From: a phage
Direction: 5' to 3' (one strand)
Sequence record: NC_102605.1
Length of the DNA: 50,633 nucleotides
In this document: one piece after another, positions 14,701 to 50,633 of the stretch
Position numbering within the stretch: the first letter of the stretch is position 1
How the letters are laid out: every line of letters starts with the position of its first letter
Translations under genes and position numbers: made by a program
Notes under the pieces: model-generated
Seen by the model: the letters and a program-made list of their open reading frames with translations, nothing else
The model's database searches: none
What the model was told of the DNA's origin: nothing

Positions 14701-14720
14701 TTAGCAAAAAGTGCTATAGG
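14701..14720 (-). promoter_or_regulatory. Dyad-motif cassette (minus orientation) for the helicase gene
   Basis: Reverse complement tatagcactttttgctaaaa; tatgat about 21 bp downstream. Confidence 0.55.
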
Positions 14721-14727
14721 TGAAAAT

Positions 14728-16321: not shown

Positions 16322-16384
16322 TATTCATCCTGCTACTAACACTTTTCGATGAATCTGTTTCATTGACTTCTCGTTGTCATTGAC

Positions 16385-16412
16385 GAACCCCGCTAAGGCG
16401 GGGTTTTTTATT
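16385..16412 (+). terminator. Rho-independent terminator after the primase gene
   Basis: aaccccgc-taag-gcggggtt followed by ttttttatt. Confidence 0.75.
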
Positions 16413-16439
16413 GCATGTAACATAGCAATATCGCATAAT
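16411..16439 (+). promoter_or_regulatory. Sigma70-type promoter TTGCAT-17-CATAAT for the tail fibre gene
   Basis: Canonical hexamers with 17-bp spacer, about 40 nt upstream of the fibre ATG. Confidence 0.5.
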
Positions 16440-16476
16440 CACTACACTGTTTCAATGAATAAAATGAGGTGTAATT

Positions 16477-20466: not shown

Positions 20467-21520
20467 ATAAAAAACCTTTGTATTGACGACGAACCCAATC
20501 AGGTGTTTGCAGGTCAATTTCCGGCTCTCCGTTTGCGTATGAAGGCCAACTGTCATTTGCCTGGCATTCTGCAAACTGGTTTATCACACTCATGTATTGA
20601 AGTCGTCCGATCTTCAATTGTTCATCCGTCATGCGGTATGCAATCGGTAAATAAGGCTCTTTCTTTTCCTGCGCCAGCAATCTGACTACTACGGGGCGCG
20701 TTTCTTCTGGATACGCTTTCTTGAATAGGTCATGCTGCAATGCCATTTTCAAATAGTAGCCGTGATTGAATGCCAGCCTTGCAAACTCTGACGGGTTAGC
20801 GCTTGACGTTGTTTTATAATCCGTGATCACAATCGCTTCATCAAATCGCGTTGTTTCATATACCGGATTACCATCACCATCATAGCCGGAAATCACTGTT
20901 GCAAGCACATCCTTGCAAATATCAACATGGTCAATCCTTACTTTTACTTTCACGCCTTTGATAGTGCCGAAAATTGATAGCTCGCGTTGTGCTGTTGGGC
21001 TATTCATGCAAGCGTTGTGTTCCGGTATGTTTTCCAGTACACGGCGCATGGTAACGCAAGCGTCGTAATCTTTAGCCGGAACCAATTCAACCTTATCCGC
21101 TCGTGCCTGGCTCTCTGCGATCATTTCAATCAGCCACTGAACATTAAGATCCTCCCCACAATCAACCATCATTTTTATCAGGTCTGGATAAGTTTTCCCG
21201 CTTGTACCAGTCAGGCCAAAAGATTTTAACTTGCTTGCTAATGCCGTTTGGCTTGTGATCAAGTTTTCGTAATCTTCCGGCGCTGGCGCTCGGCGGTACT
21301 CTTTTGCGAACAACTCACTGCTTTGAAAGTTGGTATGTGACTGCGTACCAAAAACAAGCGCTTTGCTTTCCTCGCGTGGTCTGTATTTCCATGCTGCCGG
21401 ACAAGTTGCAAAGATTTCCGCCAGGCTTGAGCCGCTAACGTATTCAGCCGCCCAACCTTTAGGATCGTGATATTCATCATTGGTTAACTGGTCAAAGGTG
21501 TAAACTTTAAAATCGCTCAT
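20465..21520 (-). CDS. PD-(D/E)XK-family exonuclease, recombination partner of Erf
   Basis: D...E.K nuclease core (ITDYKTT region); ATG after GAGAGGA; directly upstream of erf. Confidence 0.6.
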   Translation of the reverse strand: MSDFKVYTFDQLTNDEYHDPKGWAAEYVSGSSLAEIFATCPAAWKYRPREESKALVFGTQSHTNFQSSELFAKEYRRAPAPEDYENLITSQTALASKLKSFGLTGTSGKTYPDLIKMMVDCGEDLNVQWLIEMIAESQARADKVELVPAKDYDACVTMRRVLENIPEHNACMNSPTAQRELSIFGTIKGVKVKVRIDHVDICKDVLATVISGYDGDGNPVYETTRFDEAIVITDYKTTSSANPSEFARLAFNHGYYLKMALQHDLFKKAYPEETRPVVVRLLAQEKKEPYLPIAYRMTDEQLKIGRLQYMSVINQFAECQANDSWPSYANGEPEIDLQTPDWVRRQYKGFL

Positions 21521-21544
21521 TTGGTCATCCTCTCGTTGGTATGT

Positions 21545-21580
21545 CTGCATTATAGGTCTTTGTTGCATGTAGTCAATACC
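21545..21580 (-). promoter_or_regulatory. Sigma70-type promoter TTGACT-16-TATAAT for the recombination operon
   Basis: Plus strand shows agtcaa and attata with a 16-bp spacer; homologous to the promoter at 105-140. Confidence 0.6.
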
Positions 21581-21920
21581 CTTTAAGTGTTCTTTTTGTT
21601 TTACATACGTTTATAGCTAGCACTGACAACAAAATAACATCGTAAGTTTATGATTTTACTGATTGTTGTTTTTGTGTTCCATTGTTAACGCATTTACGCC
21701 GCATACCATATATAAATACATACCATGTGATATATAACCATTAACCAATACAAAACACACAACCACCACAAACCATAGAGAACAACAGAAACAAGAAGAA
21801 TACAAATAGATATATATAATAATAATTAAACTCTAAGTGTATGTATTATATAGATATTTAATTTGTTCTTTTTGTTTTCAAGACGTTTTCAATTTTACGC
21901 CGGATTCAGTTGTGAACATC

Positions 21921-21966
21921 GTGGAACAAAAGAAAACAAAATGCCCCGACCGTTAAGCCAGGGCAT
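21921..21966 (-). terminator. Rho-independent terminator at the end of the late operon (after J)
   Basis: 7-bp stem aatgccc/gggcatt followed on the minus strand by ttgttttcttttgtt. Confidence 0.55.
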
Positions 21967-21981
21967 TGATTTACCTCCTTT

Positions 21982-25805: not shown

Positions 25806-25835
25806 AACAAAAAACCCGCGCAACGGCGGGTTTAT
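25806..25835 (-). terminator. Intrinsic terminator/attenuator between the I-like and J-like genes
   Basis: aaacccgc-cgttgc-gcgggttt followed by tttgtta on the minus strand. Confidence 0.55.
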
Positions 25836-27909: not shown

Positions 27910-27976
27910 ATTCTATGCCCTCCAATAAAGCACCATTATAGACACAATAAAAAAGCCGCACAATGGCGGCTTTGAT

Positions 27977-28324: not shown

Positions 28325-31233
28325 TAAGCCCTCCCATGAACAAAATTATAAACCTCGCCACCTTGCGAGCATGAACGTTGAATCATTTCGGTGAAAATCA
28401 TCTTAATACCAGTTTCCATACCTTTTGGATCTTGACCGTTGTCAATGTTAACGTTGATATCACCAAATGCAAATTGCGATGCACCGCGATTGATGCCAGC
28501 GCCGCCAGTTGTCACGCTCCCTACTTGACCGCCGTTTGCATAACCTCGCATCATGCGATACAGGTTTTTGGCTCCGATCCTTTGCGTTGCCTCTTTGGTG
28601 AAAACAAACTCACCCTTATGAACCACTCCAGCCGGATCATATTTTCCACCGTCGCCAGTATAACCGCCGCCAGCAAAACCAGCACCGCTTAAAAGGCTCC
28701 CAAGCGTCCAGGTTGAGCCGCCCATCATGCCGGAAATGCTATTGAAGATAACCATCTTTGTGATCATCTGAACAATCAGGCTAATGATCGATTTTGCAAA
28801 GTCTTTGAAGTTTGCTTGTCCAGTAGTCAAAAAATCAGCCATTTGTTGCGATAGGCCGTTTAGCGCCTGGCTCGCAATGTTGCCGATATTATCATACATG
28901 TTCATTGCTTCCTCGCCGTACTCCGCAAAGGCATTTTTAGCGCCAGCTAACCAATCAGCGCGTTTAGCATCTTCCTCTTTATAGCGATTGTCTAATGCAT
29001 CCATCATTGCGGTGAGTTGCGGATCTCCTTCCTTGCCTCCTTTAGCAAGATAATCAGCCTCAACCTTTGCACGTTCCGCCGCTCTTGCTGCTTCACGCTC
29101 GCTTAATCCTCTTGTTTTGGCTAGTGCTTCTGTTGCTGCTTTCTGCTGCTGGATAAACTTGATTGAGCTATCTTGCAACTGATTCAGGCGAGTTTGTGCA
29201 ACAATCTGATCGCCTAAAATAGCTTTTTGTTCAGCCATCGCCAGGATCTTATCTTTGTTGGCTAAAATGCTTTTTTCTTCATCAGTAAGTTGCCGTTTTG
29301 TTGAGGCTTCTTGCAAAATCTGAATTTTAGCTTGTTCAGCCCATAAAGATTTACGTTGCTGGCTTATGGTATCCGTGATCGTCTTGTGCTCTTTCAAAAC
29401 TCTTAATTGAGTTTCTAACGCCAGGATATCACGCTGATATTGTTCTTCCAGCTTATCGCCAGCCGATACATTAACTTTTTCAGCCTTTTGCTTTTTATCG
29501 CGCTTGGCTAATTCCTCGGCTTCCTTCCTGATATTCTCTTTTGTTTTTGTTGCATATTGCTGTTCAACCGCCGCACGATTTTTCATCATGTCAATGTAAC
29601 CCTGCTCGCCTTTTTTGACTCGCTCGTTACGTTCAGCAATTGATTTTAATAGCTCCTTGTTGTTCTCCTTAGCGTTATTGATAATCTTCTGTTGCTGCGA
29701 AATAACAGAATCGCCAACATTATCAAGCCCTGGTATTTTTTGCATCGTTTTTGTTGCCGACACAATAAATTCACCAATGAGAATATCACCCTGATTAAGC
29801 AAATATCGAACTTGCTCAACGGTTCCGGCTACAACGTCAATAATCAGGTTAAGCGCCGCCAGCGTGTGATCCCCAACCCAACCCCATGCATCTGACGCCC
29901 ATTTTTTAATGTTCGTCCACATCTTTTCTAATGGCGTTGCGGAGTCTGCCAGTTTAGCTAATCTCTGATCCATAACATCAGCAAATAATTTTGTCGCCGC
30001 CGTTACTGCTTCCGTTTTGCCTTTCGTTTTCTCCAGGTCTGCAATATAAGTTAACTGCCCTTCACTTAAAAAGTTGAATTGCTCGTTTAGCTCTGCAAGA
30101 CCTTTAACCGGATCGCCAGCAATCTTATTAAAGTAATCGGTTATCTTGTCGCTTGATTCACCCGTTACCGTTGACCACTGAGCGGTAGTCTTTGTGATCG
30201 ATTTAATCTGATCAATCGTGAATTTGCCGGATTTTGCAAGCTCTGTTGCGATGGATCGGATGTTTCCCATCGTCGCATCAGTGCTGTTATTAATGTCCTG
30301 CGCCAGCTTATCGAACTGTGCGCCGCTTGTGCCAGCATATCCACCAGTCAGCACCAACGCCTCTTGCAAGTCACGTTGCGACTTATACGCATCATAACCA
30401 GCCTTAACAAGAGCACCCATTGAAACGGCTAAGGCGGCAAGGCCAACGTTTACCGGATTCAGAAACGACAACAGCGCTTTAAACGTATTACCAACGCCGC
30501 CGAAAGAATCCTTAATCTGTCCACCCTGCTGGATTGCAACCAACCAAACAGGCATACCGGAAGCCAGCGACGTTACAACGTCAGTGATCTGAGCCGGAAG
30601 TTGCGCCATAGCTTGCTTGTATTGCCCCGCGCTAATTCCGGTTAACTTCATCTGTTTTTCTTGCGCTTTAAGCTGTGCAATGAATGGCGCGGCCTGAGCA
30701 CTTACGCCAAGTTGCGCCGCTTTCATTTCCAGCAATTCGGCTTTTGTTTTTCCAAGCGCGGCGGCTTGCGATTCCAGATCCGCAAGGAAAGTTTTTCCGG
30801 CTAACGCTGCTTTCTCTTTGGCTTTTGATTCCTCAAGTGCTGCGCGGCCTTCTTCCGTTAACGCCTTTTTATTACGCTCCAGCTTACTGATCTGAGTTTC
30901 CAGCATACTCCCCAACTGGAAAAACGTTTCATCGGGAACAATGCCCTTTTGCCATAGCTTATCAAGATCACTTGCGGCCTGAGATAGCTTGCGCATTTTC
31001 GCCGCTGTCGGATCAACAGTGTCCTGAATGCGTTTAAATTCACGGCTCTGTTTCGCCAATTCATCAGCTAATTGTTTTGCTCTTTGCTTTGCAATTTCTT
31101 CCTCATTAACAAAGCTCTCAACGCCTTTCTTTGCTTCGTCGTTTGCTTTTTTAAAGTCCTGCAATGACTTTACAGCCCTGTTTAACTGCTCGACGTTAAC
31201 GCCAAGTGTTAAACCTGCAAATTGTTCAGCCAT
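28324..31233 (-). CDS. Tail tape measure protein
   Basis: About 970 aa, extensively alpha-helical/coiled-coil, Gly-rich hydrophobic C-terminal segment; GAGGG RBS. Confidence 0.85.
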   Translation of the reverse strand: MAEQFAGLTLGVNVEQLNRAVKSLQDFKKANDEAKKGVESFVNEEEIAKQRAKQLADELAKQSREFKRIQDTVDPTAAKMRKLSQAASDLDKLWQKGIVPDETFFQLGSMLETQISKLERNKKALTEEGRAALEESKAKEKAALAGKTFLADLESQAAALGKTKAELLEMKAAQLGVSAQAAPFIAQLKAQEKQMKLTGISAGQYKQAMAQLPAQITDVVTSLASGMPVWLVAIQQGGQIKDSFGGVGNTFKALLSFLNPVNVGLAALAVSMGALVKAGYDAYKSQRDLQEALVLTGGYAGTSGAQFDKLAQDINNSTDATMGNIRSIATELAKSGKFTIDQIKSITKTTAQWSTVTGESSDKITDYFNKIAGDPVKGLAELNEQFNFLSEGQLTYIADLEKTKGKTEAVTAATKLFADVMDQRLAKLADSATPLEKMWTNIKKWASDAWGWVGDHTLAALNLIIDVVAGTVEQVRYLLNQGDILIGEFIVSATKTMQKIPGLDNVGDSVISQQQKIINNAKENNKELLKSIAERNERVKKGEQGYIDMMKNRAAVEQQYATKTKENIRKEAEELAKRDKKQKAEKVNVSAGDKLEEQYQRDILALETQLRVLKEHKTITDTISQQRKSLWAEQAKIQILQEASTKRQLTDEEKSILANKDKILAMAEQKAILGDQIVAQTRLNQLQDSSIKFIQQQKAATEALAKTRGLSEREAARAAERAKVEADYLAKGGKEGDPQLTAMMDALDNRYKEEDAKRADWLAGAKNAFAEYGEEAMNMYDNIGNIASQALNGLSQQMADFLTTGQANFKDFAKSIISLIVQMITKMVIFNSISGMMGGSTWTLGSLLSGAGFAGGGYTGDGGKYDPAGVVHKGEFVFTKEATQRIGAKNLYRMMRGYANGGQVGSVTTGGAGINRGASQFAFGDINVNIDNGQDPKGMETGIKMIFTEMIQRSCSQGGEVYNFVHGRA

Positions 31234-31248
31234 ATATTTTACCCTCAT

Positions 31249-31275
31249 AAAAAAAGCGCCCGTAGGCGCTTTATT
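31249..31275 (-). terminator. Intrinsic terminator/attenuator between the GT chaperone and tape measure genes
   Basis: aagcgcc-tacg-ggcgctt followed by seven T on the minus strand. Confidence 0.6.
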
Positions 31276-31902
31276 TGTTATTTGCTTGCATCATTTCCAG
31301 TGCTTTTTGTTCCATGATGCGCAAGTCATTTAAGGCCATTTCTTCATCGTCTATTTTATAGATTCTGAATAACATAGGCAAAACATTATAATCAAAACCG
31401 TAAGCACCAGCGCCAGCACTACGCCACTGTGTACCCATCGCGCAAAATATATCCCATGATTGCATCATACTTTCATCAAATATGACCTCTGGCGGATCTT
31501 CTCCTTCATAGTCTGCGCGGGTTAATCCTACGGCTTGCAATTCTGCATCTGTCGGCGGTTTCTGATAATACAGATAAACCGCCAGTTTTAGTTTTTTACG
31601 CGTTGCCCTGCCAGCGCACTTAAATAAGATCCCATAAGAGCCAGCGCCGCGCCAGGATAATAATCAACTAACAGTTGCGCGTTTTCTTCGTTGAATTCTT
31701 CTTCCAGATCCCAACCAACGGCAACATTCATGATGAATTCAGGATCTTTAATACCTTCTTTCTGGTAAAGCTCTTGAATCTCGCTGGCCTTTTTATGCTT
31801 AACGGTAAACACAATTTTTTGCTCGTTACCATCCGGCAATACAAATTTAACTGGAAGTTTGAAATCTGGAAGCGGGGCAAGAGTCAATTTCATTTTAGCC
31901 AT
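31271..31902 (-). CDS. Tail assembly chaperone GT fusion made by programmed -1 ribosomal frameshift
   Basis: Slippery heptamer A-AAA-AAC at 31591-31597 just before the G stop; -1 frame is open into ORF 31271..31540. Confidence 0.6.
31588..31902 (-). CDS. Tail assembly chaperone (lambda G-like)
   Basis: About 104 aa, between the major tail and tape measure genes; AGGAGA RBS. Confidence 0.65.
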   Translation of the reverse strand: MAKMKLTLAPLPDFKLPVKFVLPDGNEQKIVFTVKHKKASEIQELYQKEGIKDPEFIMNVAVGWDLEEEFNEENAQLLVDYYPGAALALMGSYLSALAGQRVKN

Positions 31903-31947
31903 TGTCATTTCTCCTGAGTGGTTAAATATTGAGGTGATATTACATCA

Positions 31948-31980
31948 AATAAAAAAGGGACGCAATGCGCCCCTTTAAAT
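31948..31980 (-). terminator. Rho-independent terminator immediately after the major tail protein gene
   Basis: 10-bp stem (aaaggggcgc/gcgtcccttt with one G-U pair) followed by ttttttatttg on the minus strand. Confidence 0.7.
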
Positions 31981-32639
31981 TAAGCCTGAGTAGAAGGCAA
32001 GAAAGTAAATCGACCTTTCAGGGATACCGACAAAGAAACGGTTTCCATTTCGTTTACCGCCGTTTGTGGGATCTCGTTGAAAGAAAGCACACCAGCCCAA
32101 AGGCGCATTTCTTTTGCTTTTGGTACATACATGCGCAATGCTTTAACGTCGCCGGATTCGTCAGCCTTACGCAAGAGCGGATAAATCGGATTATCGTACT
32201 CATGCGCAAAGGTGTAAGTCAGTGACACCGCGCTTTTATAGGTTGGTAACTGCTGCTCCTGGTCATCGCTCAAGCACTGGTAATTGTAATACTGCTGCTC
32301 GCCGCCGTCCTGCCCCAAGTCCTGTACGCATGGGATCTCTGTCCATGATTCAATTTTCATAACGCTACCAGTAGCGCCGGACGGAAAAACGTTTTCATCA
32401 GTGGTGTCGATACCTTCAAGCGTGAAACTTGTGTTATCGCTAACCTCTTTAACTCGCAGTACACGATCAAGAAGTTTACCCCACGTTGATACAGTGACAA
32501 TCACATAATCACCTTTTTTCAATCCGCCAGTATCAGACGCGGTAAACACCGGATCTGTTGCGTTGCTGATTGCTGTTGCTTTGATTTCTGAGCCGCGAGT
32601 ATTCTCAATAAAAATCTGTGATCCGTTAGGTAAGTGCAT
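31980..32639 (-). CDS. Major tail (tube) protein
   Basis: Position upstream of the G/GT chaperones, followed by a strong terminator. Confidence 0.6.
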   Translation of the reverse strand: MHLPNGSQIFIENTRGSEIKATAISNATDPVFTASDTGGLKKGDYVIVTVSTWGKLLDRVLRVKEVSDNTSFTLEGIDTTDENVFPSGATGSVMKIESWTEIPCVQDLGQDGGEQQYYNYQCLSDDQEQQLPTYKSAVSLTYTFAHEYDNPIYPLLRKADESGDVKALRMYVPKAKEMRLWAGVLSFNEIPQTAVNEMETVSLSVSLKGRFTFLPSTQA

Positions 32640-32653
32640 AATAGCCCCCTTTA

Positions 32654-33046
32654 TTAACCATCATAACGAACATAAAAACGTACTGGATAAAACCAGCCTG
32701 ATTCTGATTTCTGAACTTGATGCACTTTTGCACCTTCTGAAATATAGCCATTCGAAAGCATTTTACCATCTTCAAAGAAATCAGCAATATTTTTTGCCAG
32801 CTTGCGAGCCTTATCAATTCCTGAGCCTGGCGGGAATTCAATTCCGATCTGAACCATTCCAATATAGCTAATGCATTTCCTTTTCAGATCATGAATTATT
32901 GTATCTGCTTCTTTGTAGTCATATTTCAGCCAAATTCCGCCGCCTTTTGGTGGCGTAAATTCAACGTTTTCATAAGCGATCATATATTCGCTTTCGTATT
33001 CTTGAGCCAGCGCCATTCTTGCAGCAACAGATAATTCATAGTGCAT
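32654..33046 (-). CDS. Tail terminator-like protein
   Basis: 130 aa, directly upstream of the major tail gene; synteny only. Confidence 0.45.
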   Translation of the reverse strand: MHYELSVAARMALAQEYESEYMIAYENVEFTPPKGGGIWLKYDYKEADTIIHDLKRKCISYIGMVQIGIEFPPGSGIDKARKLAKNIADFFEDGKMLSNGYISEGAKVHQVQKSESGWFYPVRFYVRYDG

Positions 33047-33485
33047 TTTTCTTTCTCGCCTCCCTTATCGCTTCCGCCATGTAAGAGCGCAACCGGATCG
33101 CAACGATACCAAATACCCCCGCTGGCGCTTGCTTTGAATGACCATATTCAAGAGCATTAGCGTAAATCAGCATATTGGAAAAGTATATTGATTTAATAGC
33201 GCCGCCTCCATGCAATAAAGCATAAAGCGCCCTGCGACCTTCCGCCTTTGTTTTCTCACCATCAGGATCATATTGATTGAGCGCGTAAAGAGGCGGCTTG
33301 TTTGCTGTGATCTGCATATTGGCTTTGAATCGTCCTGTATCCACTGGCGCAATATCAACTAATGCGCCGTGAACCTTTTCACCAAAAATCTGAATCACGT
33401 CATTCAATCCGCTTTCTACTTGCTCGATCCATTTGTCAACATTGCCATGAAATTCTCGGATCGAATAATCAGCCATGAACCGCAA
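33036..33485 (-). CDS. Tail completion / neck protein (HK97 gp10-like)
   Basis: Size and synteny in the head-tail joining module. Confidence 0.45.
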   Translation of the reverse strand: MRFMADYSIREFHGNVDKWIEQVESGLNDVIQIFGEKVHGALVDIAPVDTGRFKANMQITANKPPLYALNQYDPDGEKTKAEGRRALYALLHGGGAIKSIYFSNMLIYANALEYGHSKQAPAGVFGIVAIRLRSYMAEAIREARKKNAL

Positions 33486-33849
33486 TCCTCCGCATTATTG
33501 GACGGTAAGCAACGGTAATGCTTGTTGGTCTGATTGGTCTTGTTTCAACCATAACATAACGCTCGCCGTCGATATCAATCTGATATCCGTTTTTAAGCTC
33601 TACATCAGCATTAAAAACGCCTAACTTGTCGGTAACTCTAATTGTCTCTCCGTCAACTTCTCGCGTCCGTGGTGCTCTCACAAGACCTTTAATCTTCACC
33701 TTTATTTCAGGTTTTTCAACCTCAATACCGCCAACAATTTCAACGCTTCCAGGTTGAGTAATGCAATCAAATTCACCAGTTCCATCGCTAAAAAAATTAA
33801 TTCCAGCCGATGCCATAGATCTGATTTGTTCATAATTCATCGTGAGCAC
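33469..33849 (-). CDS. Head closure / head-tail adaptor protein
   Basis: Size and synteny. Confidence 0.45.
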
Positions 33850-34256
33850 CTCCGATGAAAGGCAGTTGTAAGGCCAAATCCGCCGCCTTTTTTCTTGTTG
33901 AGAACTTCATACATTTTACCCCACGGCGTTTGGCGCAACGTGTTACCGCTTGTGTCGTCGCTAACTTTGCTGAACGTCTGCGAAAACTCACCAGTCAGGG
34001 AAAATGACGCTATACGATGCGAGTAGCTTTCTACGCTCTCACTTTCCTGTTTCATAGCTCCGTCAAGAGTCATCAGGTGCAAAGTGTAAAGAGCAACAGC
34101 GCGGAAATATTTGTCTTTGAAATGCTTTTCGCAAACGAAATCTTTAGCCAGTTCAATCCATGCCTGAATCAATTCAGGATCAACTTTCTTGAATGCTGGC
34201 GCGATTTTATAAATTTGCTCTAGGATCTCAATATCGCCATAAATTTCATCAACCAT
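33837..34256 (-). CDS. Head-tail connector protein
   Basis: Track 33837..34268; ATG after GGGGGT RBS; synteny. Confidence 0.45.
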
Positions 34257-34262
34257 AATAAC

Positions 34263-34300
34263 CCCCATAATAAAAAAGGCGCTACATGAGCGCCCTTTCT
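34263..34300 (-). terminator. Intrinsic terminator module (hairpin, T-tract, TATTATGGGGGTTATT-ATG)
   Basis: ggcgct-catgta-gcgcc plus six T; near-identical to the module at 39758-39790. Confidence 0.6.
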
Positions 34301-34302
34301 AA

Positions 34303-34575
34303 TTAATACTCGCCGCCGTCCTCAAGCTGTGCTTTGCTTTTGCCTTCGGTTGGGTTTGGCTTGCGTTTTTCGTTGAACGCTTCAATGATCTTATCGTTTA
34401 GCTCGCTGTTATCTTTTACGGTTAGCTTGCCTTGTGCAACCAGTGATTTTGTACCCTGCCGCTCTAACACGCTTTCCGCAACGGTAATTTCCTTACCTGG
34501 CATAACGTCAACGCGATCAATAATAATCAGTGCAACGCCAGTGTTAACCAGTGTAATTTCTTTTTCTTTAGCCAT
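34303..34575 (-). CDS. Hypothetical structural protein (90 aa)
   Basis: ORF track; bracketed by two terminator hairpins inside the late operon. Confidence 0.5.
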   Translation of the reverse strand: MAKEKEITLVNTGVALIIIDRVDVMPGKEITVAESVLERQGTKSLVAQGKLTVKDNSELNDKIIEAFNEKRKPNPTEGKSKAQLEDGGEY

Positions 34576-34589
34576 TTGTTTTTCTCCAG

Positions 34590-34625
34590 ATATAAAAAAA
34601 GGGAACCTTTTAACGGTTCCCTATA
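34590..34625 (-). terminator. Rho-independent terminator immediately after the major capsid gene
   Basis: agggaacc-gttaaaa-ggttccct followed by seven T on the minus strand. Confidence 0.7.
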
Positions 34626-34637
34626 TTAATTGAATTA

Positions 34638-35612
34638 TCAGCCTACTACAAGACCTTTAATCAGAACCAGCGTTAACGGACGGTAAATCGTCAGGCCAGT
34701 ACATTTAGAGGTGCAAGGCACTTTGAAATGCAGGTCTTTAGGTTGCGCGGTCAGCATGTTAAACGCTTCTGGAATCTCAATGCTCATGTTCATTGGATCT
34801 TTTTCGTAAACCAGCGCCGCTTTAGTACCTGCGCCGTCGATATCTTCAAGCTCGGAAATGGATTCGATAGTGATACCGCCATTCTGCTGCTTGAAATAAT
34901 CAAGATAGCTCATGGTTGTTTCCGGCATGCGAACCATCAGAACTTTACGCATTGACGGCGGAATCAGGATCATATTAGCGCGGTGCTGCCCGTTGGTCAG
35001 CGTTTCGATTTTTTCAATCGCTTGCTCTAATTCATCCTGTGCGGTTTCCGGCTTTTTACCAGTACCTGCGGCGTTGTTCCAACCTGCGGAGTTGATAGTT
35101 GTCAGGTTTGGATGATCAAACACGCTGATAATTTTATGCGGTTTAGAGCCTTTGAAAACCAGGTGGTTTACAAGCTGATCATGCGCATTCTGTGCGGCGT
35201 TGGCCTTGCGAGTGGAAAGGCTCTTGCCAGTGCGTTGACCTGCTTTGATTTCGTCAATGGAAATCAGGAACGCATTACCCAGGCGGAACACTTTACCAAA
35301 TTCAGAAGTCATCAGCGCGTCAACAGTTGGCAGATCATCAGTATAATCAGCGATGATTTTTGCGTGCCCTACTTTGTCGAAAGTCTGATATTCAAAGGTT
35401 TTATCTGTATCGGAAAGCTCGGACGTTACAGGGAATACACGCAGTGCAGAACCTGCCGGATATTCTTTTTCATAGGCTTGAGCCTTAATTTTATGAAGCT
35501 CTTGAGCCGTCCAAATACCCATATCAGATGCGTCGTTTTTAGCGCCGCGTAACTGCATATGGTTGGCGATCACGTTTGCTTCAAATTCATCATATTTAAT
35601 TTCTTTAGACAT
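34638..35612 (-). CDS. Major capsid protein
   Basis: About 324 aa after an RBS-supported ATG (track 34638..35627); position after scaffold/decoration genes. Confidence 0.7.
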   Translation of the reverse strand: MSKEIKYDEFEANVIANHMQLRGAKNDASDMGIWTAQELHKIKAQAYEKEYPAGSALRVFPVTSELSDTDKTFEYQTFDKVGHAKIIADYTDDLPTVDALMTSEFGKVFRLGNAFLISIDEIKAGQRTGKSLSTRKANAAQNAHDQLVNHLVFKGSKPHKIISVFDHPNLTTINSAGWNNAAGTGKKPETAQDELEQAIEKIETLTNGQHRANMILIPPSMRKVLMVRMPETTMSYLDYFKQQNGGITIESISELEDIDGAGTKAALVYEKDPMNMSIEIPEAFNMLTAQPKDLHFKVPCTSKCTGLTIYRPLTLVLIKGLVVG

Positions 35613-35655
35613 AATATTTCCCCTCATAGAAAAGCCGTCATAATAACGGCTTTAA

Positions 35656-35675
35656 TATAGCATTTTTTGTTAAAC
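35656..35675 (+). promoter_or_regulatory. Orphan dyad motif in plus orientation inside the minus-strand late operon
   Basis: atagcattttttgttaaa with no plus-strand gene downstream; a hairpin with tattatg loop lies between it and the capsid RBS. Confidence 0.4.
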
Positions 35676-35701
35676 GTTCAAGTGTTTTTTGTGTTAGCAC
35701 G

Positions 35702-36142
35702 CTACAACTGAACTGATAGTAAAATATATCCGTGTGAATATCTTACGTATTCGCCAGTAAAAAACCAACTGGTAGGAAATCCACTTGTTGATATAGAGCC
35801 ATTGTCTTTAACAAAAACAGGATCTTTATACGATGGAATATCCTGTTCATCCTGAGTGATTACCCAAATTCGACCATGAGTTATTACGTTAACCGGATCT
35901 CCGGCGTCGTAATATTCTTTGCAAAAATCCATATAATCACGCGTAACGATTCCGTAATGCTTTGAGTTTTCATTAAAATTGTGGCTGATTATTTTGTAAC
36001 CGCAAGATATGTGATCAACACATACGGCCTTACCTATCACGGCTGAAACATCCATAACTGGCGAGCCATCTATATTATAAAGGCTTGAATCTACCAAGCA
36101 CCCATTTTCAACTATACCTATTATAGAACCGTAATCAGACAT
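35702..36142 (-). CDS. Capsid-associated protein, paralogue of 36186..36665 (decoration-like)
   Basis: Shares YNIDG...GR.WV...TSG...TG pattern with the upstream gene; ATG after GGTGG. Confidence 0.5.
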   Translation of the reverse strand: MSDYGSIIGIVENGCLVDSSLYNIDGSPVMDVSAVIGKAVCVDHISCGYKIISHNFNENSKHYGIVTRDYMDFCKEYYDAGDPVNVITHGRIWVITQDEQDIPSYKDPVFVKDNGSISTSGFPTSWFFTGEYVRYSHGYILLSVQL

Positions 36143-36149
36143 AAAACCA

Positions 36150-36182
36150 CCATATATAAAAGGCCGGAATAATCCGGCCTTA
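36150..36182 (-). terminator. Hairpin module between the two decoration-like paralogues
   Basis: aaggccgg-attatt-ccggcctt followed by ttttatatat. Confidence 0.5.
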
Positions 36183-36185
36183 TTA

Positions 36186-36665
36186 TTATACCAGTTGAAC
36201 CTCAACGAGTTTTAGACCTTGTAATTCCGTAAAGTCTCCAGTTGCGATCCAAGTGGTTTCAATTAATCCAGACGTTAAATCAACCTGTCCTGAATTATCA
36301 AGTTTGATAGGTGTTTTGAATGCTGGCGCTTCTGATTCTACAGATAGCATCCAAACGCGCCCTTTAGTCATTACGTTAATTCCGCTACCAGCCTCATAAA
36401 CCATGCGACCATCTTTTGAAGTAGTCTGGAAGTTGGATCGAATAGCAACACCATAAGCATTTCCAGACGCTGCCATAGCCTTAATTAATTTCTCACCGTT
36501 TGCGCTAACTCCTCCATGTTGAACACCAACGCCAACATAAATTGTTGATCCTGCATCACCATCAAGAACACAAGCGCCGTCGATGTTATACGCGGAAGTG
36601 TCAGAAACTTGACCAGGCAAGGCGCGAGCCATTGCAACATGATAACTTGCTGAAATCTGAGCCAT
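36186..36665 (-). CDS. Capsid decoration-like protein (159 aa)
   Basis: AAGGAGA RBS; paralogous to 35702..36142. Confidence 0.5.
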   Translation of the reverse strand: MAQISASYHVAMARALPGQVSDTSAYNIDGACVLDGDAGSTIYVGVGVQHGGVSANGEKLIKAMAASGNAYGVAIRSNFQTTSKDGRMVYEAGSGINVMTKGRVWMLSVESEAPAFKTPIKLDNSGQVDLTSGLIETTWIATGDFTELQGLKLVEVQLV

Positions 36666-36677
36666 AATATTTTCTCC

Positions 36678-37787
36678 TTACTTAGCTTTATTCAGACGTG
36701 CGGAAGGATCAAGAACTGTTTCCGCTGCATCCTGTTTGTTTTTTGCTGCATCGCCTTTTAATGCGATACGTTGAGCCGCCATTTTATCAGATTCTTTAGC
36801 GATATCAAAAGCGGTATCAATATATGCATCAGCCTTTGCGCTAATGTCATTACCCATGACCTCTTTTACATATGCGATCTTAATTTCTTTGGCGGTTAGG
36901 CCGTCGCATTTTACGCCAACTTCGGAAGCGGTAGCGACCAGCGCGGCATGTTCATCAGCGTCAGCTTTTGCTTTTTTTACGGCTTCTTCAATCTGCGCCG
37001 GAATGCCGTCAACTTTCGCCTGTAGAGCATCGCGCTCTGCTTCCAGGCTATCGGCTTTAGTTTTTGCCGCTGTAGCGTCTGCTTTCACGGTTTCGATAAA
37101 AGTAGCAACTTCTTTTGGTACGTCAAATTCAACAGCACCATCAAGTTTAATTTTAACGGTCATAACTTCGTCCTCTTTATTTAATTTAACGTCGATATCA
37201 TACGGGAATTCTTGCTCGCTATCAAGATTCAATTTTGCAATGCCAGCGCGACCCTTAAACACTAACGCAATATGGTTAACACTAATGCTTGTTTGCAGCG
37301 CATCAAATTTTACCCATCCTTCCGGCGGCTGTTCATCTTCTTTTAGATCTTCTTCAAAGATGTATTCACCAGTTTCATTAGATCCATAACCAGGCTTATC
37401 AATATCAATCGACGTATAACCAACGCTAATTTCAGCCGTTTGCTTTTTCTTTGCGCTTTCGATTGCTCGTTTTGCGTAAATATTTAACGGCGCTTCAACA
37501 CCCACACCATTTGGAATGCCAGCACCGGAACACGATCCAACAACAACCTTTTCGGCGTTTTCAGGCGTTACGGTGACGTGACCTACTGTGATTGGTTTCC
37601 CTGCGTAAGTCGCCAGGCTATCAGCTTTAAACACTTCACTTGCTGGCCTGAATTCTCTACGCTCGCCGTATGGCGTTTGATAAATCTGCAAACCAATTCG
37701 CGCCACAATAGGCCGATCCACTAAAAAACCGTGTTCATCAAAATGCGCCTTTACTCTGACACTATCAAAACGTTGCACCTTCTTCAT
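36678..37787 (-). CDS. Head scaffolding / prohead-processing-like protein (DUF2213-like N-terminus, Ala/Lys-rich coiled-coil C-terminus)
   Basis: Position between the head-morphogenesis and capsid genes; ATGA overlap with the upstream gene. Confidence 0.5.
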   Translation of the reverse strand: MKKVQRFDSVRVKAHFDEHGFLVDRPIVARIGLQIYQTPYGERREFRPASEVFKADSLATYAGKPITVGHVTVTPENAEKVVVGSCSGAGIPNGVGVEAPLNIYAKRAIESAKKKQTAEISVGYTSIDIDKPGYGSNETGEYIFEEDLKEDEQPPEGWVKFDALQTSISVNHIALVFKGRAGIAKLNLDSEQEFPYDIDVKLNKEDEVMTVKIKLDGAVEFDVPKEVATFIETVKADATAAKTKADSLEAERDALQAKVDGIPAQIEEAVKKAKADADEHAALVATASEVGVKCDGLTAKEIKIAYVKEVMGNDISAKADAYIDTAFDIAKESDKMAAQRIALKGDAAKNKQDAAETVLDPSARLNKAK

Positions 37788-38455
37788 AAATATACCTCTT
37801 GCTCTGTTTCCCAATCCGGTTGCGCCCAACAGCGACAATTATATTCCTGCCCTGGGAATATGTGCTTTATTGCCAATGAGATCCGCTTCATGTTCAATTT
37901 CGCGTGTTCAGGTCTAACCCGATTATCTTCCTGAGTGCGCCAAATATAATGGGTAACTCCTGCATCAACTACGCGTTGATACATTAACACGGAATACCAC
38001 GAACCAACAAAACCAGACGCCCTATTTTTAGCCCACGCCTTATATTTTCTTAGACGCTTTCGGATCTGTGCTCTTGTTTCTGCTTGCTCGCGTAACTCAT
38101 TTAAACGCTGTTGCACTTCCCAATCATCAAGCACATTATACGCAAATTTCCTTACGGATGCCTCAATAAGTGATCGCCAGGTTATGTATTTTGAATTGAA
38201 CCAACGTTCATTCATATTTCCGTAAACGCCACCAATCAGAAGGATAACGGATCGATTATTTGCTCCGCCTGTTTGCTTTGCCATTCTGATAAATTGGCGA
38301 GTGTGGTATTTGTATGCACTAACGGCGAACCCGTAAACCAGCAACATAAAGGCGGCAATTGCCGCCTCTACATCAGCATTGTTTTCAGTGATATCAACCG
38401 CCAGATCATTAAGCGCCTTTTCAACGTCGCTCTCTGTCATATCGGGAAACATCAT
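37784..38455 (-). CDS. Head morphogenesis protein (Mu F / SPP1 gp7 family)
   Basis: Conserved VRPEH...CRCW C-terminal signature; follows portal with ATGA overlap. Confidence 0.7.
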   Translation of the reverse strand: MMFPDMTESDVEKALNDLAVDITENNADVEAAIAAFMLLVYGFAVSAYKYHTRQFIRMAKQTGGANNRSVILLIGGVYGNMNERWFNSKYITWRSLIEASVRKFAYNVLDDWEVQQRLNELREQAETRAQIRKRLRKYKAWAKNRASGFVGSWYSVLMYQRVVDAGVTHYIWRTQEDNRVRPEHAKLNMKRISLAIKHIFPGQEYNCRCWAQPDWETEQEVYL

Positions 38456-39747
38456 TTATTTAATCCTCCCTCTTGCCCTGGCTCTGGTTCTAAATCTTCC
38501 GGCTCTGGCAATTCAATGTTGTCATTGTCCCTGATTTTAAGATCTGGACAAATGGATCGCAAAGTGTCTCTTGTTTCTTTGAGATCAATCGCCTGTTCAG
38601 CTTTCAATTTTACAACAGATTCAACGTTCTTAGCCATAATTTCAGCTTTGTCCTTATCGCTCGGAACGCTTAACGGTTCGAATTCAATAGACCATTCCGT
38701 TTCTGCGATCATGAACGGCAAAAGGAATTCAAGAATCGGCTTGTAATCCTCTCCGCGCTTGCGATCAATCAACTTATAGAAAGTCTCTAGCGCCGTGTTT
38801 TGACTCGCTGAAACGCCGCCAGTGTTCTTATTTTTGAGGATGATTTCATGAATTCCAGTAAGAGCAACAATTCGATCAATCTTTTCCTGTAAGAACTCTG
38901 GAACGCCGGAAACGTCAGAATTGAGAACCTCATATTCTTCATCGGTGGCATCAATACCAATTGCCTTACCAACTCCGCTTTCGTCATCAACCTGAGCCAA
39001 ACGCAAACGCGCCGCATAGCGCCCTTCTTCATCGTCGCACATCAAAGCCAGATCACGCGCTTTCCATACTGCTTGTTGTTTTCGGCGTAGCAATTGCGTT
39101 GCTAATTCCTGGCAATAGTTATAATCAACAATAGCCTCAATCAAGCGCTTATTTAAAATGCTTGCACCCCAACCATCATTTTGACGGCGTTTTTCATTCG
39201 ATACGCGCTCACCATCAATGATGCAAATACGCGAGTAATGAACAAAGAATTCCGGTATATCTCCGCCAGGTGAGATCTTATAAAGTTTTGGCTCACCGTA
39301 ACGAACACTCCGCGCATTAGTTTCACGTTCCTGAATGGTGATCTGATAGCGATCATATACGCGAATATCTTCAAGTTGTGCCCCAGGCTTTACAGGTGAT
39401 TTCAGCATTCTGTTATCAGCAACAACAGCAAGAATTGCAGAACCGCCAAATAAACGCGACCATGAAAGCGCATCAATAATTTTAGCGTTTAATCGCAATT
39501 CATCCCAACGCGATTTAAAAGACTTTTCATTTTTCACGCCGTCAACTTTAAAACCAGGCGTTACCATTTCTTCTGGAATAACATCGACAATGCGCCTCGC
39601 CATTCCATCTTCTTCATAAAATTGCGATAACGTTTTAAATGCAGCACTTTGCATGTAAAAAGCATTTGGCCTAAACGTTCCATCTTTAGATCCGAAAATT
39701 TCGTTGTAACCATCTTCTTTAGTAATGGCCTTTACCTTGTCGCTCAT
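38452..39747 (-). CDS. Portal protein
   Basis: About 431 aa directly downstream of the large terminase; ATG after GGGGGT. Confidence 0.7.
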   Translation of the reverse strand: MSDKVKAITKEDGYNEIFGSKDGTFRPNAFYMQSAAFKTLSQFYEEDGMARRIVDVIPEEMVTPGFKVDGVKNEKSFKSRWDELRLNAKIIDALSWSRLFGGSAILAVVADNRMLKSPVKPGAQLEDIRVYDRYQITIQERETNARSVRYGEPKLYKISPGGDIPEFFVHYSRICIIDGERVSNEKRRQNDGWGASILNKRLIEAIVDYNYCQELATQLLRRKQQAVWKARDLALMCDDEEGRYAARLRLAQVDDESGVGKAIGIDATDEEYEVLNSDVSGVPEFLQEKIDRIVALTGIHEIILKNKNTGGVSASQNTALETFYKLIDRKRGEDYKPILEFLLPFMIAETEWSIEFEPLSVPSDKDKAEIMAKNVESVVKLKAEQAIDLKETRDTLRSICPDLKIRDNDNIELPEPEDLEPEPGQEGGLNK

Positions 39748-39757
39748 AAATACCCCC

Positions 39758-39790
39758 ATAATAAAAAAGGCCGGAATATTCCAGCCTTTG
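39758..39790 (-). terminator. Intrinsic terminator module between terminase and portal (hairpin, T-tract, TATTATGGGGGTATTT-ATG)
   Basis: aaggctgg-aatatt-ccggcctt plus T-tract; paralogous to the modules at 34263 and 36150. Confidence 0.55.
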
Positions 39791-39800
39791 ATTTTACACA

Positions 39801-41381
39801 TTAACGCTTCGCTAATCCAGCTAAACGCTTCATTCTATCAACAGCATTATCAGCAAGGTTAAGCTCAATATTAACCGCATCAAAAAGGTTATCCATAATA
39901 TCATCATGAGGATGGCTATCATCATAAGTGAATGCAGCCGCCTCTGCCAGAAATTCAGCAAGCATGTGATGCGATTCAGGCAATACAACATAACCATTCT
40001 TGATCACTGGTTGTGCGTCCATGCATCGCGTTACTTTGTCTTTATCGCGTTGCACTGGCGTAATTTCTATCGGAAATGCTTTGCGGCAATTCTGGATCAA
40101 ACCTGTGCCGCTCGCTTTATCTTCCACGTAAATTTTACGCAAGTTTCCGCATTCTTTGTTACGTTTCCAGCACTGTTTAACAAACGCTTTAAACTGCGTT
40201 TCTAACATTGGCGCTTCCCATTTGCCGCGCACACCGTCAATAAAATAGATGCGGCCTTTGAACATGCCCCAATAACATAAAACGCTGTAGTCGTTTAGCT
40301 CACCTTCTTTCTGAGCGGTATCAGCCGTAATAAACGTATAATCAAAGCGATCCGGTTTTGGCATCGTTGATTTTTCTCCTGTTCCGTAATACTGGAACCA
40401 TCCAACGTTAATTGCGTTGCCGCCAAGAGCAATTGGCTCTTGCTGGTACTGAGAAAGGAACGTGTATAAATCCGCATCGCGTAGCGCTTTCAGGTCATGA
40501 ATGCTTTCCTTGCTAGGCCAAAAAGAATAATACTTAACGCCATCAATAACGATGTATTCAGACGAAAGAACATCCTTTTCAAAGTGCGGTTGCAACCAAT
40601 CAGGAAGCGATTTCCCGTATTCCTCCGTAACCATCGCCGGAATTGATATCTGATCAAATTCAATACCCATTCCGCCATTCATCAGAAACCAGGTCATATC
40701 CTGCGCGTGTAGACGCTGCTGAATAACGATAATCGGCGTTTCTGAATGTGCGCGACGTGATCGAATGGTGTTCTTTGCGATCATTTGACCGCGCTCACGC
40801 TTCACCTTCGAAAACATATCATCTGGCTTTTCTGGATCGTCAAGCGTTACGCAACCGGAATAAACACCAGGCGTGATGTAACCGCCACGGCTACCAGTAA
40901 TCTGACCGCCCATTGATTTACTAATCATTTCCAGGCGAACTTTGCCAGCGTCATTAAGGATCTGAAATTCATCATCCTTGCTTGTACCAGTTTTTGCGGG
41001 GTAAAGCTCTTGCCATTCTCGCGAGTTAACCAGATCGCGCACACGCTTGCTGTTACGTTTAACCAGCGTATCAGCAAACGAAATATTAAGATTTCGCACC
41101 TTGTTCAATTTCAAATATGAATAAGGCGGAAAGTGGATCGAAAGCAATTCTGTTTTACCTGAACCTGGCGTTACGTTAAAAATGGTATCTTTGCGCACAC
41201 CTTCAATAATTTCATCAATTGCCCTTGCAATATAAAGGTGATGCCAGTTAGGAATCCATTTTTCGCCCTGCTGGATCGGAAACCAGATTTTAACGAAAGT
41301 ATCAAAATCGTGTGTACTTAATTCCTTAATAGCCAGCTTTTCAAGTTTTGTTAAATCTTCCCAAATCAACATAGCATTCAC
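39801..41381 (-). CDS. terL: Terminase large subunit
   Basis: Walker A TPGSGKT, ATPase plus RNaseH-like nuclease architecture, 526 aa. Confidence 0.85.
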   Translation of the reverse strand: MNAMLIWEDLTKLEKLAIKELSTHDFDTFVKIWFPIQQGEKWIPNWHHLYIARAIDEIIEGVRKDTIFNVTPGSGKTELLSIHFPPYSYLKLNKVRNLNISFADTLVKRNSKRVRDLVNSREWQELYPAKTGTSKDDEFQILNDAGKVRLEMISKSMGGQITGSRGGYITPGVYSGCVTLDDPEKPDDMFSKVKRERGQMIAKNTIRSRRAHSETPIIVIQQRLHAQDMTWFLMNGGMGIEFDQISIPAMVTEEYGKSLPDWLQPHFEKDVLSSEYIVIDGVKYYSFWPSKESIHDLKALRDADLYTFLSQYQQEPIALGGNAINVGWFQYYGTGEKSTMPKPDRFDYTFITADTAQKEGELNDYSVLCYWGMFKGRIYFIDGVRGKWEAPMLETQFKAFVKQCWKRNKECGNLRKIYVEDKASGTGLIQNCRKAFPIEITPVQRDKDKVTRCMDAQPVIKNGYVVLPESHHMLAEFLAEAAAFTYDDSHPHDDIMDNLFDAVNIELNLADNAVDRMKRLAGLAKR

Positions 41382-41908: not shown

Positions 41909-41995
41909 AATAAAATCCTCCTGTTGATGCGTGATTATAGCTAAATTGTATGCACAAAAAAACCCGCGCAAGGCGGGTTATGTTTCGGCTTTGGA

Positions 41996-50121: not shown

Positions 50122-50595
50122 TTATTCATCCTCATTGTTGACAAAGTTGATTTTCACAAGTGCATGAAGCTCTTGCATTACTTTTGCTACGGTTGCGTAT
50201 TCTTCCGGCGCATAGTTTGCCAGGTTTGGCGATAGCGTCATAAAGCGCTCTGCTGCCTTGTTCACTGCCTGGCGCTTGTGCCGTTCAACGTCAGCCTTGC
50301 TATAAACCGTTTTACGTTTCTCATGAGTGAGTGTGATCTTGAATACTTCCATGCCGAAAAGGTTACTTTCGTCATCGTCGCACATTGTCTTTTTGATCTT
50401 GATAGTGCCAACCATTTTTACTTCCGGCACTCGTGACATAGTGGTGCGCACGTATGAAGCCGGATTATCAGATGATTTCTTTCCGGCTAATTCAGTAGCC
50501 AGGTAGCCAGTCGGGATCACGATTTCGGTTTTCTCACCACTGGCGAGCGCCTTTGCTGCCTCGCGTAGTTTTTCGGTAAAGCTCATGTTTTCCAT
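50122..50595 (-). CDS. Hypothetical protein (~157 aa), first gene of the leftward array driven by the 105-140 promoter
   Basis: Track 50122..50628; ATG after AGGAGA RBS (MENMSF...); 5' end duplicated at 1-77. Confidence 0.55.
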   Translation of the reverse strand: MENMSFTEKLREAAKALASGEKTEIVIPTGYLATELAGKKSSDNPASYVRTTMSRVPEVKMVGTIKIKKTMCDDDESNLFGMEVFKITLTHEKRKTVYSKADVERHKRQAVNKAAERFMTLSPNLANYAPEEYATVAKVMQELHALVKINFVNNEDE

Positions 50596-50633
50596 ATGGT
50601 TTCTCCTGATTGGTTTTGATGTGTGCATTATGC
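50519..50633. repeat. Second copy of the terminal direct repeat (identical to 1-115)
   Basis: Exact identity with 1-115. Confidence 0.9.

Follow-up and report, generated by a model that had tools for sequence, protein, structure and literature searches.

Conserved terminator-like hairpins and adjoining promoter-like sequences between the structural genes of T1-like phages

The window analyzed here, the whole 50,633-bp stretch of record NC_102605.1, covers the full genome of a siphovirus that resembles T1 and belongs to the genus Tlsvirus (Drexlerviridae). Between the genes of its 20-kb structural block, we found hairpins followed by T-tracts that resemble intrinsic terminators, and we consider it probable, if well short of certain, judging from sequence comparison, that these elements split the block into about ten short units, most of which would be coupled to σ70-like promoters. 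Family-wide, the terminators keep their position while their sequences turn over, and most of them are physically coupled to conserved promoter-like hexamers.

Hairpins with terminator anatomy in the structural block

The structural genes lie on the minus strand, from terS (41908) to the end of the J-like tip gene (21982). The head part consists of terS, terL, portal, a head-morphogenesis gene, a protease gene, the decoration genes decoA and decoB, the major capsid protein (MCP) gene and gp37, which encodes 90 amino acids. These are followed by four connector genes (gp38 to gp41), the major tail protein (MTP) gene, the G and T chaperone genes, the tape measure protein (TMP) gene, and M, L, K, I and J. 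We searched the coding strand of this 20.2-kb block with a strict finder, which accepts a single hairpin of at least 5 pairs with a loop of 3 to 8 nucleotides (nt), a ΔG ≤ -8 kcal/mol and no fewer than 5 T among the 8 nt that follow. This returned 13 matches, against 2.4 ± 1.3 in dinucleotide shuffles, and 12 matches at ΔG ≤ -10, against 0.9 ± 0.8. Of the 13, 11 fall between genes. The intergenic space upstream of the J stop codon amounts to ~660 nt (3%), and each gap of at least 37 nt in the block has exactly one hairpin. A chance origin of the hairpins is ruled out by the shuffles and by this clustering in ~3% of the sequence.

Each of the 11 elements folds as a single hairpin (-10.9 to -18.3 kcal/mol, with z-scores of -2.6 to -5.8 against shuffles), always on the coding strand and just 3' of a stop codon. 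The G+C-rich stems, composed of 7 to 13 pairs (5 to 9 without terminal A-U pairs), close loops of 3 to 7 nt and are followed by 4 to 7 T. After the core stem, the T-run counts 6 or 7 T at nine sites, and it is a TTTT followed by an interruption at decoA–decoB, before MCP and after J. A Carafa-type d-score (d'Aubenton Carafa et al. 1990), which serves as a rough ranking only, is 17 to 40 at every intergenic site except the one before MCP (-7). The elements thus have the anatomy of intrinsic (Rho-independent) terminators, from which we infer actual termination and its efficiency. They share with the canonical Escherichia coli terminator the dimensions of stem, loop and T-run, an upstream A-tract that pairs with the T-run, and a location just after stop codons. 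Unlike canonical E. coli terminators, however, ten of them stand inside one co-oriented block of essential genes, and the T-runs at decoA–decoB and before MCP are short and interrupted.

Seven hairpin and T-tract elements had been listed in a sequence-only reading of this genome, and all seven were confirmed where it had placed them, on the minus (coding) strand. The strict finder adds four that were absent from that list, located before terS, before MCP, between M and L, and after J. The last of these, AATGCCCTGGCTTAACGGTCGGGGCATT followed by TTGTTTTC (21940 to 21967, minus strand; T50 in the TLS nomenclature introduced below), marks the end of the structural block.

Hairpin terminators between structural genes are already known from published work on T1 (2004) and TLS (2024). 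The eleven hairpins described here correspond one to one, and almost base for base, to the terminators T28, T30, T34, T35, T36A, T36B, T42, T44, T46, T49 and T50 of phage TLS (Table S1 in PMC11447400). Terminators are also annotated at these junctions in the GenBank entries for T1, KP36 and SA32RD, and other T1-like genome papers report 8 to 21 such terminators. The T1 segments were called "transcriptons" by Roberts et al. 2004, as cited in the TLS paper (PMC11447400), which left open whether promoters accompany the terminators. In the published TLS and T1 work, the elements are listed without comparative or covariation analysis, and the sole aspect that may be new is the coupling of promoters and terminators seen by comparison.

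For this comparison, we assembled 94 loci, consisting of the late regions of 14 GenBank Drexlerviridae from at least eight genera and of 80 IMG/VR contigs retrieved with an MTP profile. Orthologues were placed by tblastn, the same finder was run on each genome, and a hairpin was counted when it lay within 130 nt upstream of a gene. Hairpins are found upstream of terS in 59/59 loci, portal in 62/79, decoB in 47/85, MCP in 55/86, gp37 in 56/58, gp38 in 81/90, G in 84/93, TMP in 79/82, L in 85/86 and J in 83/84. None was found upstream of terL (0/75 loci), the head-morphogenesis gene (0/53), decoA (0/86), gp39 (0/93), T (0/94) or M (0/89). The density of terminators, which had been described as unusual, is high when set against some phages but not unique. 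Fewer such elements are present in HK97 (seven annotated putative late-operon terminators, five of them by the strict finder), N15 (four annotated, two by the strict finder), lambda (three or four late-operon hairpins by the strict finder) and Jersey (four hairpins by the same finder), where they tend to occupy corresponding positions.

Across the 94 loci, each positive junction exhibits 16 to 30 different hairpin sequences. In the hairpins that could be aligned, compensatory double changes affect 3/7 pairs at T–TMP and 5/8 pairs at MCP–gp37. About 90% of the cells in the aligned stems are paired, compared with 30 to 70% when the partners are slid, and the observed covariation score was reached by 0/500 shuffles and by no slid control. 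Because their positions are conserved in 94 genomes and their stems display compensatory changes, the hairpins are, on this comparative evidence, under selection as structures. Alignment of the I–J junctions with MAFFT/RNAalifold gave no consensus structure, the hairpins of different genera being unalignable, and per-genome folding was used instead. A perfect 7-bp hairpin with a weak T-run, AGGCGGCAATTGCCGCCT (-13.3 kcal/mol; 38367 to 38350, minus strand), is found within the head-morphogenesis gene; it is present in TLS too but was not seen at that place in other genera.

Promoter-like sequences beside the hairpins

Aligning the junctions across genera reveals three layouts. All the features in this section are on the minus strand, and the counts of promoter-like sequences refer to distinct junction sequences, not to loci. 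In layout 1, which comprises the junctions before terS and at MTP–G, M–L and I–J, the terminator would be followed, ~10 to 21 nt after the stem, by a σ70-type -10 (TAnAAT), and the resulting cassette would end the upstream transcript and start the next one. Before terS, the hairpin AACCCGCCTTGCGCGGGTT and its seven T (41961 to 41979; T28) precede a TATAAT (41934 to 41939) located 21 nt after the stem and 25 nt before the terS ATG. All 47/47 junctions have a -10, usually at +19 to +22; an extended TG accompanies it in 34 of them, and there is no -35.

At MTP–G, where the hairpin AAAGGGGCGCATTGCGTCCCTTT (31954 to 31976; T42) is followed by a T-tract, the promoter-like element is TTGCGT (31965 to 31960, in the loop and 3' arm)-17-TAATAT (31942 to 31937). 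The hexamer lies at +7 to +13 from the stem in 59/59 junctions. Its A2, A5 and T6 are invariant (59/59), the first position is a T in 48/59, and position 3 is free, a pattern characteristic of the σ70 -10. A TTG is found 16 to 17 bp upstream of the -10, in the hairpin loop or 3' arm, in 53/59 junctions, and it touches the loop in 93% of MTP–G hairpins versus 9 to 28% at portal, MCP, gp37, gp38 and TMP. At M–L, the hairpin AAAGCCGCCATTGTGCGGCTTT and its T-tract (27952 to 27973; T46) come with TTGTGC (27963 to 27958)-17-TATAAT (27940 to 27935); the -10 is present in 40/54 junctions and absent in Rogunavirus and Braunvirinae. At I–J, the hairpin AAACCCGCCGTTGCGCGGGTTT and its T-tract (25812 to 25833; T49) come with TTGCGC (25823 to 25818)-17-TACAAT (25800 to 25795), followed by a degenerate direct repeat (25780 to 25762) and the J ATG at 25758. 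Here, the -10 is present in 51/51 junctions, as TA(T/C/G)AAT in 50 and as TAAAAT in one. The -35 TTG would thus be part of the hairpin itself (loop or 3' arm) at MTP–G, M–L and I–J, where it stands exactly 17 bp upstream. A -10 downstream of the hairpin is found at the other junctions in only 0/36, 0/28 (T–TMP), 1/44 and 3/39 sequences.

In layout 2, seen before MCP, at terL–portal, at MCP–gp37 and less consistently at decoA–decoB, the -10 would end 0 to 3 nt before the hairpin. A local transcript would then begin within the 5' arm and be unable to complete the hairpin; a read-through transcript arriving from upstream would form it and stop. At terL–portal, the hairpin AAAGGCTGGAATATTCCGGCCTTT (39766 to 39789; T30; d-score of 30) is followed by TTTTTTATTATGGGGGTATTTATG, which encompasses the T-tract, the Shine-Dalgarno sequence and the portal ATG (39747 to 39745), and is preceded at a distance of 1 nt by TAAAAT (39791 to 39796). 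The consensus TAnA(A/C)T ends 0 to 2 nt before the hairpin in 44/45 junctions, with T1, A2 and T6 invariant (44/44) and position 3 free. At MCP–gp37, the hairpin AGGGAACCGTTAAAAGGTTCCCT followed by seven T (34600 to 34622; T36A) is abutted by TTGTAG-N17-TAATAT (34623 to 34651), in which the -35 falls in the last MCP codons and the -10 occupies 34628 to 34623. A -10-like hexamer ends 0 to 2 nt before the hairpin in 45/45 junctions. A TTG stands 16 to 17 nt upstream of it in nearly all those listed, this spacing being kept although the length of the MCP C-terminal peptide varies by genus.

Before MCP, the hairpin AGCCGTTATTATGACGGCT, followed by TTTTCTATGAGGGG with a weak T-tract (35633 to 35651; T35), starts 2 nt after the -10 (35659 to 35654) of TTGAAC-N16-(TGc)TATATT (35654 to 35681). 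This element reads TTGACg-N16-TGcTATtAT in T1, EcoS-95, aaroes, KMI8 and KP36, and is replaced by a different promoter in Rtp-like phages; the KP36 and SA32RD records label it a promoter. Its TTGAAC matches the -35 at 4/6 positions (plus the TG), and the TTGACG of T1 at 5/6; the match at terL–portal is weak. At decoA–decoB, the hairpin AAGGCCGGATTATTCCGGCCTT (36160 to 36181; T34), followed by TTATATATGGTGGTTTTATG with the decoB ATG (36142 to 36140), has 3 nt in front of it an extended -10-like sequence, TGgTATAAT (36185 to 36190), which overlaps the decoA stop codon. A -10-like hexamer is present in 24/38 junctions, which makes this site the less consistent one.

Layout 3 is found at gp37–gp38 and T–TMP, where no consistent hexamer is present on either side of the hairpin in the distinct junctions of the family. 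At gp37–gp38, the hairpin AAAGGGCGCTCATGTAGCGCCTTTT (34274 to 34298; T36B) is followed by TTATTATGGGGGTTATTATG, without a promoter-like element. At T–TMP, the hairpin AAAGCGCCTACGGGCGCTTT (31253 to 31272; T44; d-score of 40) is followed by TTTTTTTATGAGGGT, in which the T-tract runs straight into the Shine-Dalgarno sequence. With a terminator leading directly into a ribosome-binding site and no promoter, the connector genes and the tape measure gene would be reached by read-through only, and both junctions, which are of the attenuator type, would act as attenuators.

The association of promoter-like elements with the junctions exceeds expectation. The pattern TTGnnn-N16-18-TAnnnT occurs at 26 sites on the coding strand of the block, and five of these sites are at five of the eleven junctions, against 0.38 expected; 2000 random placements put at most three sites there. 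From this geometry, we infer promoter activity, the positions of the starts and the ability of local transcripts to escape the hairpin. A more specific proposal, which we put forward only tentatively, is that the inter-gene hairpins of Drexlerviridae could be bifunctional terminator–promoter cassettes, in which either the loop gives the -35 TTG and the T-tract the spacer, or the terminator lies in the first 25 nt transcribed and stops read-through only. The literature searched contained nothing relevant on overlaps between a terminator loop and a -35. The terminated messages for the capsid and tail tube (MCP and MTP) would also end in a stable hairpin and be protected from 3' exonucleases.

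Several points weigh against a division into promoter-coupled units. The -35 matches are weak (3/6, essentially the TTG only), and the junctions are A+T-rich, which favors chance -10-like hexamers. The 94 loci are mutually related, so that the counts represent non-independent events. With stricter promoter criteria, the TLS authors recognized no more than three promoters genome-wide, did not count the elements beside the hairpins as promoters, and did not endorse transcriptons (PMC11447400). In the literature searched, there is no mapping of 5' or 3' ends, RNA-seq or in vitro transcription for T1-like phages. If a layout 2 transcript started a few nt into the stem, the hairpin might still form and self-termination occur. 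Finally, constitutive σ70 promoters ahead of late genes leave the early/late timing of T1 infection unexplained.

A promoter had previously been proposed at another place, the TATTAT within the string TTATTATGGGGGT (see below). As a -10, this candidate fails: it ends 10 nt before the ATG, comes without a -35 or TG, and lacks conservation in other genera, with TTTTATTGGAGG taking its place in T1, aaroes and the Rtp group. It lies upstream of the Shine-Dalgarno sequence or overlaps it, and because it ends 10 nt before the ATG, a transcript starting from it would lack the Shine-Dalgarno sequence. Tests for a downstream promoter at the junctions bearing TTATTATGGGGGT were negative (0/36 and 1/44). 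The broader idea of internal re-initiation finds support in the conserved -10 hexamers beside the hairpins, but not at the proposed TATTAT.

Similarity between modules and a 21-nt direct repeat

The sequence-only reading had also seen three modules sharing a near-identical string. We found instead two overlapping pairs that are alike and no triplet, since the pair defined by the hairpin and the pair defined by TTATTATGGGGGT differ. The terL–portal and decoA–decoB modules are identical at 40/44 positions over their whole length, from hairpin to ATG, and the hairpin aaggc(t/c)gg..ccggcctt is common only to these two (at 39789 and 36181). The terL–portal and gp37–gp38 modules are identical at 25/27 positions in their 3' 27 nt (stem end, T-tract, ATTATGGGGGT and ATG), with different stems. 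Only two exact copies of TTATTATGGGGGT exist, at terL–portal (39764 to 39752) and gp37–gp38 (34273 to 34261), and allowing two mismatches yields 4 matches versus 1.2 expected, a result that 5/100 shuffles equal. A three-copy repeat family, with a terminator/-10/ribosome-binding unit at three or more gene starts, is ruled out, as the shared strings occur only twice. The tail common to terL–portal and gp37–gp38 is best read as a T-tract, a Shine-Dalgarno sequence, a spacer and an ATG, the Shine-Dalgarno GGGGGU pairing with the anti-Shine-Dalgarno sequence, one of the pairs being a G-U.

Comparison across genera helps to place the first pair. Throughout Tempevirinae, the terL–portal hairpin, AAGGCTGG..CCAGCCTT, is orthologous. 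At decoA–decoB, the hairpin varies by genus, with GGGACyATCC.. in T1 and EcoS-95 and GGCGCTCAGTGAGCGCC in aaroes. Because decoA–decoB resembles terL–portal only in eight Tlsvirus-type loci, the comparison suggests that its hairpin was replaced by an intragenomic copy in the Tlsvirus lineage. A second similarity group is formed by the hairpins before terS, at M–L and at I–J (37/43 and 35/46 identical); I–J forms near-identical pairs with M–L (15 loci) and with pre-terS (12 loci). For this group, convergence is as likely as copying, because a G+C stem, a TTGCG loop and a T-run are all needed. A hairpin with a core, CCCGCC..GCGCGGG, similar to the pre-terS and I–J hairpins of T1-like phages is shared by lambda (L014, 4484 to 4505) and N15 (L015, 4331 to 4352); it reads GAACCCGCCTA(T/C)GCGCGGGTTT and is located just inside gene C (gene 5 in N15), beside the end of the portal gene.

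Promoter-like elements are also found outside the structural block, in association with a 21-nt direct repeat known from TLS, aaATAGCACnnnTTGnTAAAA. The genome has 23 matches to this repeat versus 3.2 expected, for example at 737 to 755 and 5147 to 5165 on the plus strand and at 10901 to 10883 and 49302 to 49284 on the minus strand. In 20/23 copies, a -10-like hexamer (CATAAT, TATAGT, TATGAT and others) is found at +19 (18 copies) or +18 (2 copies) from the repeat end, which places the center of the repeat near -42, where class-II activators typically bind. The repeats accordingly resemble upstream elements of ~20 putative early-region promoters, and a conserved leader, CATCGAAACGAAAC..GGAG, follows many of these promoter-like elements. 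In at least six of them, the -10 hexamer is located in the loop of a short G+C-rich inverted repeat (e.g., GGGGCAtttgtTATAGTGTCCC and GGGTAgtttggCATAATTACCC); these are at 44023 to 43960, 45345 to 45280, 46447 to 46380, 48012 to 47950, 48892 to 48830 and 49302 to 49240, all on the minus strand. Others exhibit a small hairpin between the repeat and the -10.

The repeat also reaches the late region. An inverted copy (35657 to 35675, plus strand) forms the spacer and extended -10 of the element before MCP, and in genomes of the T1, EcoS-95 and aaroes types (L002, L003, L005 and L010) an inverted copy is located directly before the ribosome-binding site of G. It is a matter of speculation that, if a protein binds the 21-nt repeat, it could act in opposite ways at the early and late units.

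The genome itself has close relatives. Over region 31000 to 40000, identity amounts to 99% with Escherichia phage Henu4_2 and Salmonella phage GJL01 and to 96.7% with phage TLS. Positions 1 to 115 are exactly duplicated at 50519 to 50633; this duplication is an assembly overlap of a circularly permuted genome, which leaves 50,518 bp of unique sequence. Among the database matches, the record "Streptococcus phage MBBL140" (host S. agalactiae) shares 97% identity over 9 kb, and 19 records labeled as "Campylobacter" phages match too. These host labels are probably those of contaminants or of mis-assigned hosts.

Alternative explanations, known systems and significance

The block could alternatively be a single late operon with one upstream promoter, in which leaky terminators would step the mRNA down and set stoichiometry, a possibility that we regard as unlikely. 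It has precedent, since in T7 the expression beyond a leaky terminator (T-phi, after gene 10) is tuned by partial termination, and weak terminators that are read through in sequence have been documented in other phages, LUZ7 among them, by ONT-cappable-seq (PMC9163698). As here, T7 and LUZ7 have a terminator directly after the major capsid gene; there, however, termination was measured and involves phage RNA polymerases, whereas here it is predicted from sequence, and T1-like phages are thought to use the host RNA polymerase (PMC11447400). The order MTP, G/T, TMP, tip proteins and J fits a falling gradient, and gp37–gp38 and T–TMP have no promoter-like sequence. The order of the head genes, however, is the wrong one: MCP, the most abundant virion protein, is encoded downstream of three or four terminators, and terminase, needed in few copies, upstream of all. 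Moreover, ten hairpins in series with d-scores of 17 to 40 would leave almost no transcript for J, and conserved promoter-like elements are present at seven to eight junctions. The graded attenuation proposed earlier is thus plausible at gp37–gp38 and T–TMP, but it cannot set the head stoichiometry of one late operon, because of the respective places of MCP and terminase.

Hairpins may also act after transcription, as exonuclease barriers or processing boundaries that would confer segment-specific half-lives on the mRNA, with little true termination. The covariation is silent here, as it reveals selection on structure and not which function is selected, and the strongest hairpins do follow MCP and MTP, the two most abundant structural genes. 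Yet a T-run comes directly after every hairpin on the coding strand, a feature that would be superfluous in a simple stabilizer. We therefore find an exclusively post-transcriptional role improbable, and such a role is in any case compatible with termination, which would leave this hairpin at the end of the RNA.

The Q antitermination system carries RNA polymerase through the late-operon terminators of lambda, HK97 and N15. A processive device of this kind, reading through efficient terminators, could be envisaged here, given that HK97, N15 and lambda have hairpins at analogous junctions (around and after MCP, after MTP, before TMP and between I and J) and that, according to notes in the T1 record, T1-like phages and N15 have homologous tail genes. 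The resemblance has limits, however. The lambdoid phages have 2 to 7 hairpins versus 10 to 11 here, and their junctions have no counterpart to the conserved -10 located after the hairpin in Drexlerviridae, the next start codon being 0 to 21 nt away, as for J in lambda and N15. In addition, no Q-like product is annotated in T1 or in the part of TLS examined; among the 77 genes of the T1 record and in the TLS late region, no product is named antiterminator, although no homology search directed at Q or N was run. No Rfam family matched anywhere in the 50,633-bp genome at gathering thresholds. We consider this explanation very unlikely.

That the modules are primarily recombination joints or small mobile cassettes at module boundaries, with only a secondary likeness to terminators, is scarcely credible: near-identical hairpins do recur at different junctions (terL–portal with decoA–decoB in 8 loci, besides the M–L, I–J and pre-terS pairs in 15 and 12 loci), one junction's hairpin may be swapped for an unrelated one between genera, and HNH and other extra genes are inserted at hairpin junctions in C119, Rtp and JulesPiccard, but the modules are strictly oriented along the coding strand, their T-run lying 3' of the stem, stems within a junction evolve by compensatory substitution, flanking repeats and transposition signatures are absent, and the constraints imposed by the G+C stem, TTG loop, T-run and Shine-Dalgarno sequence narrow the sequence space and favor convergence.

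The extra genes in these relatives, HNH endonuclease or small genes, are at 3801 to 4331 in C119 (L007), at 6388 to 6864, 8500 to 8856, 16380 to 16766 and 21464 to 21979 in Rtp (L016), and at 2248 to 2625, 14371 to 14745 and 15629 to 16111 in JulesPiccard (L012). Such insertions are often found at terL–portal, at MCP–gp37, after MTP and at M–L, with some at terS–terL and L–K, and terminator-bounded gaps may be preferred landing sites for inserted genes. Small units bounded by promoters and terminators, such as gp37, which is located between two hairpins with a promoter-like element in front, are reminiscent of morons, the promoter-gene-terminator insertions of lambdoid phages. Unlike morons, however, the bounded units here are core structural genes conserved in the family, not accessory insertions.

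We therefore return to a structural block divided by terminators into about ten units, most of them probably associated with promoters of their own. If start sites and 3' ends confirm it, this organization would settle the question raised by the TLS paper, namely whether the late regions of T1-like phages are "transcriptons", and it would provide synthetic biology with natural, very short terminator–promoter insulators. It would also reveal how very different doses of the capsid, tail-tube, tape-measure and tip proteins are set in a phage that has neither a polymerase of its own nor a known antiterminator. If true, it would represent a very compact way for a virulent phage that relies on host RNA polymerase only to insulate and individually tune some ten structural-gene units.

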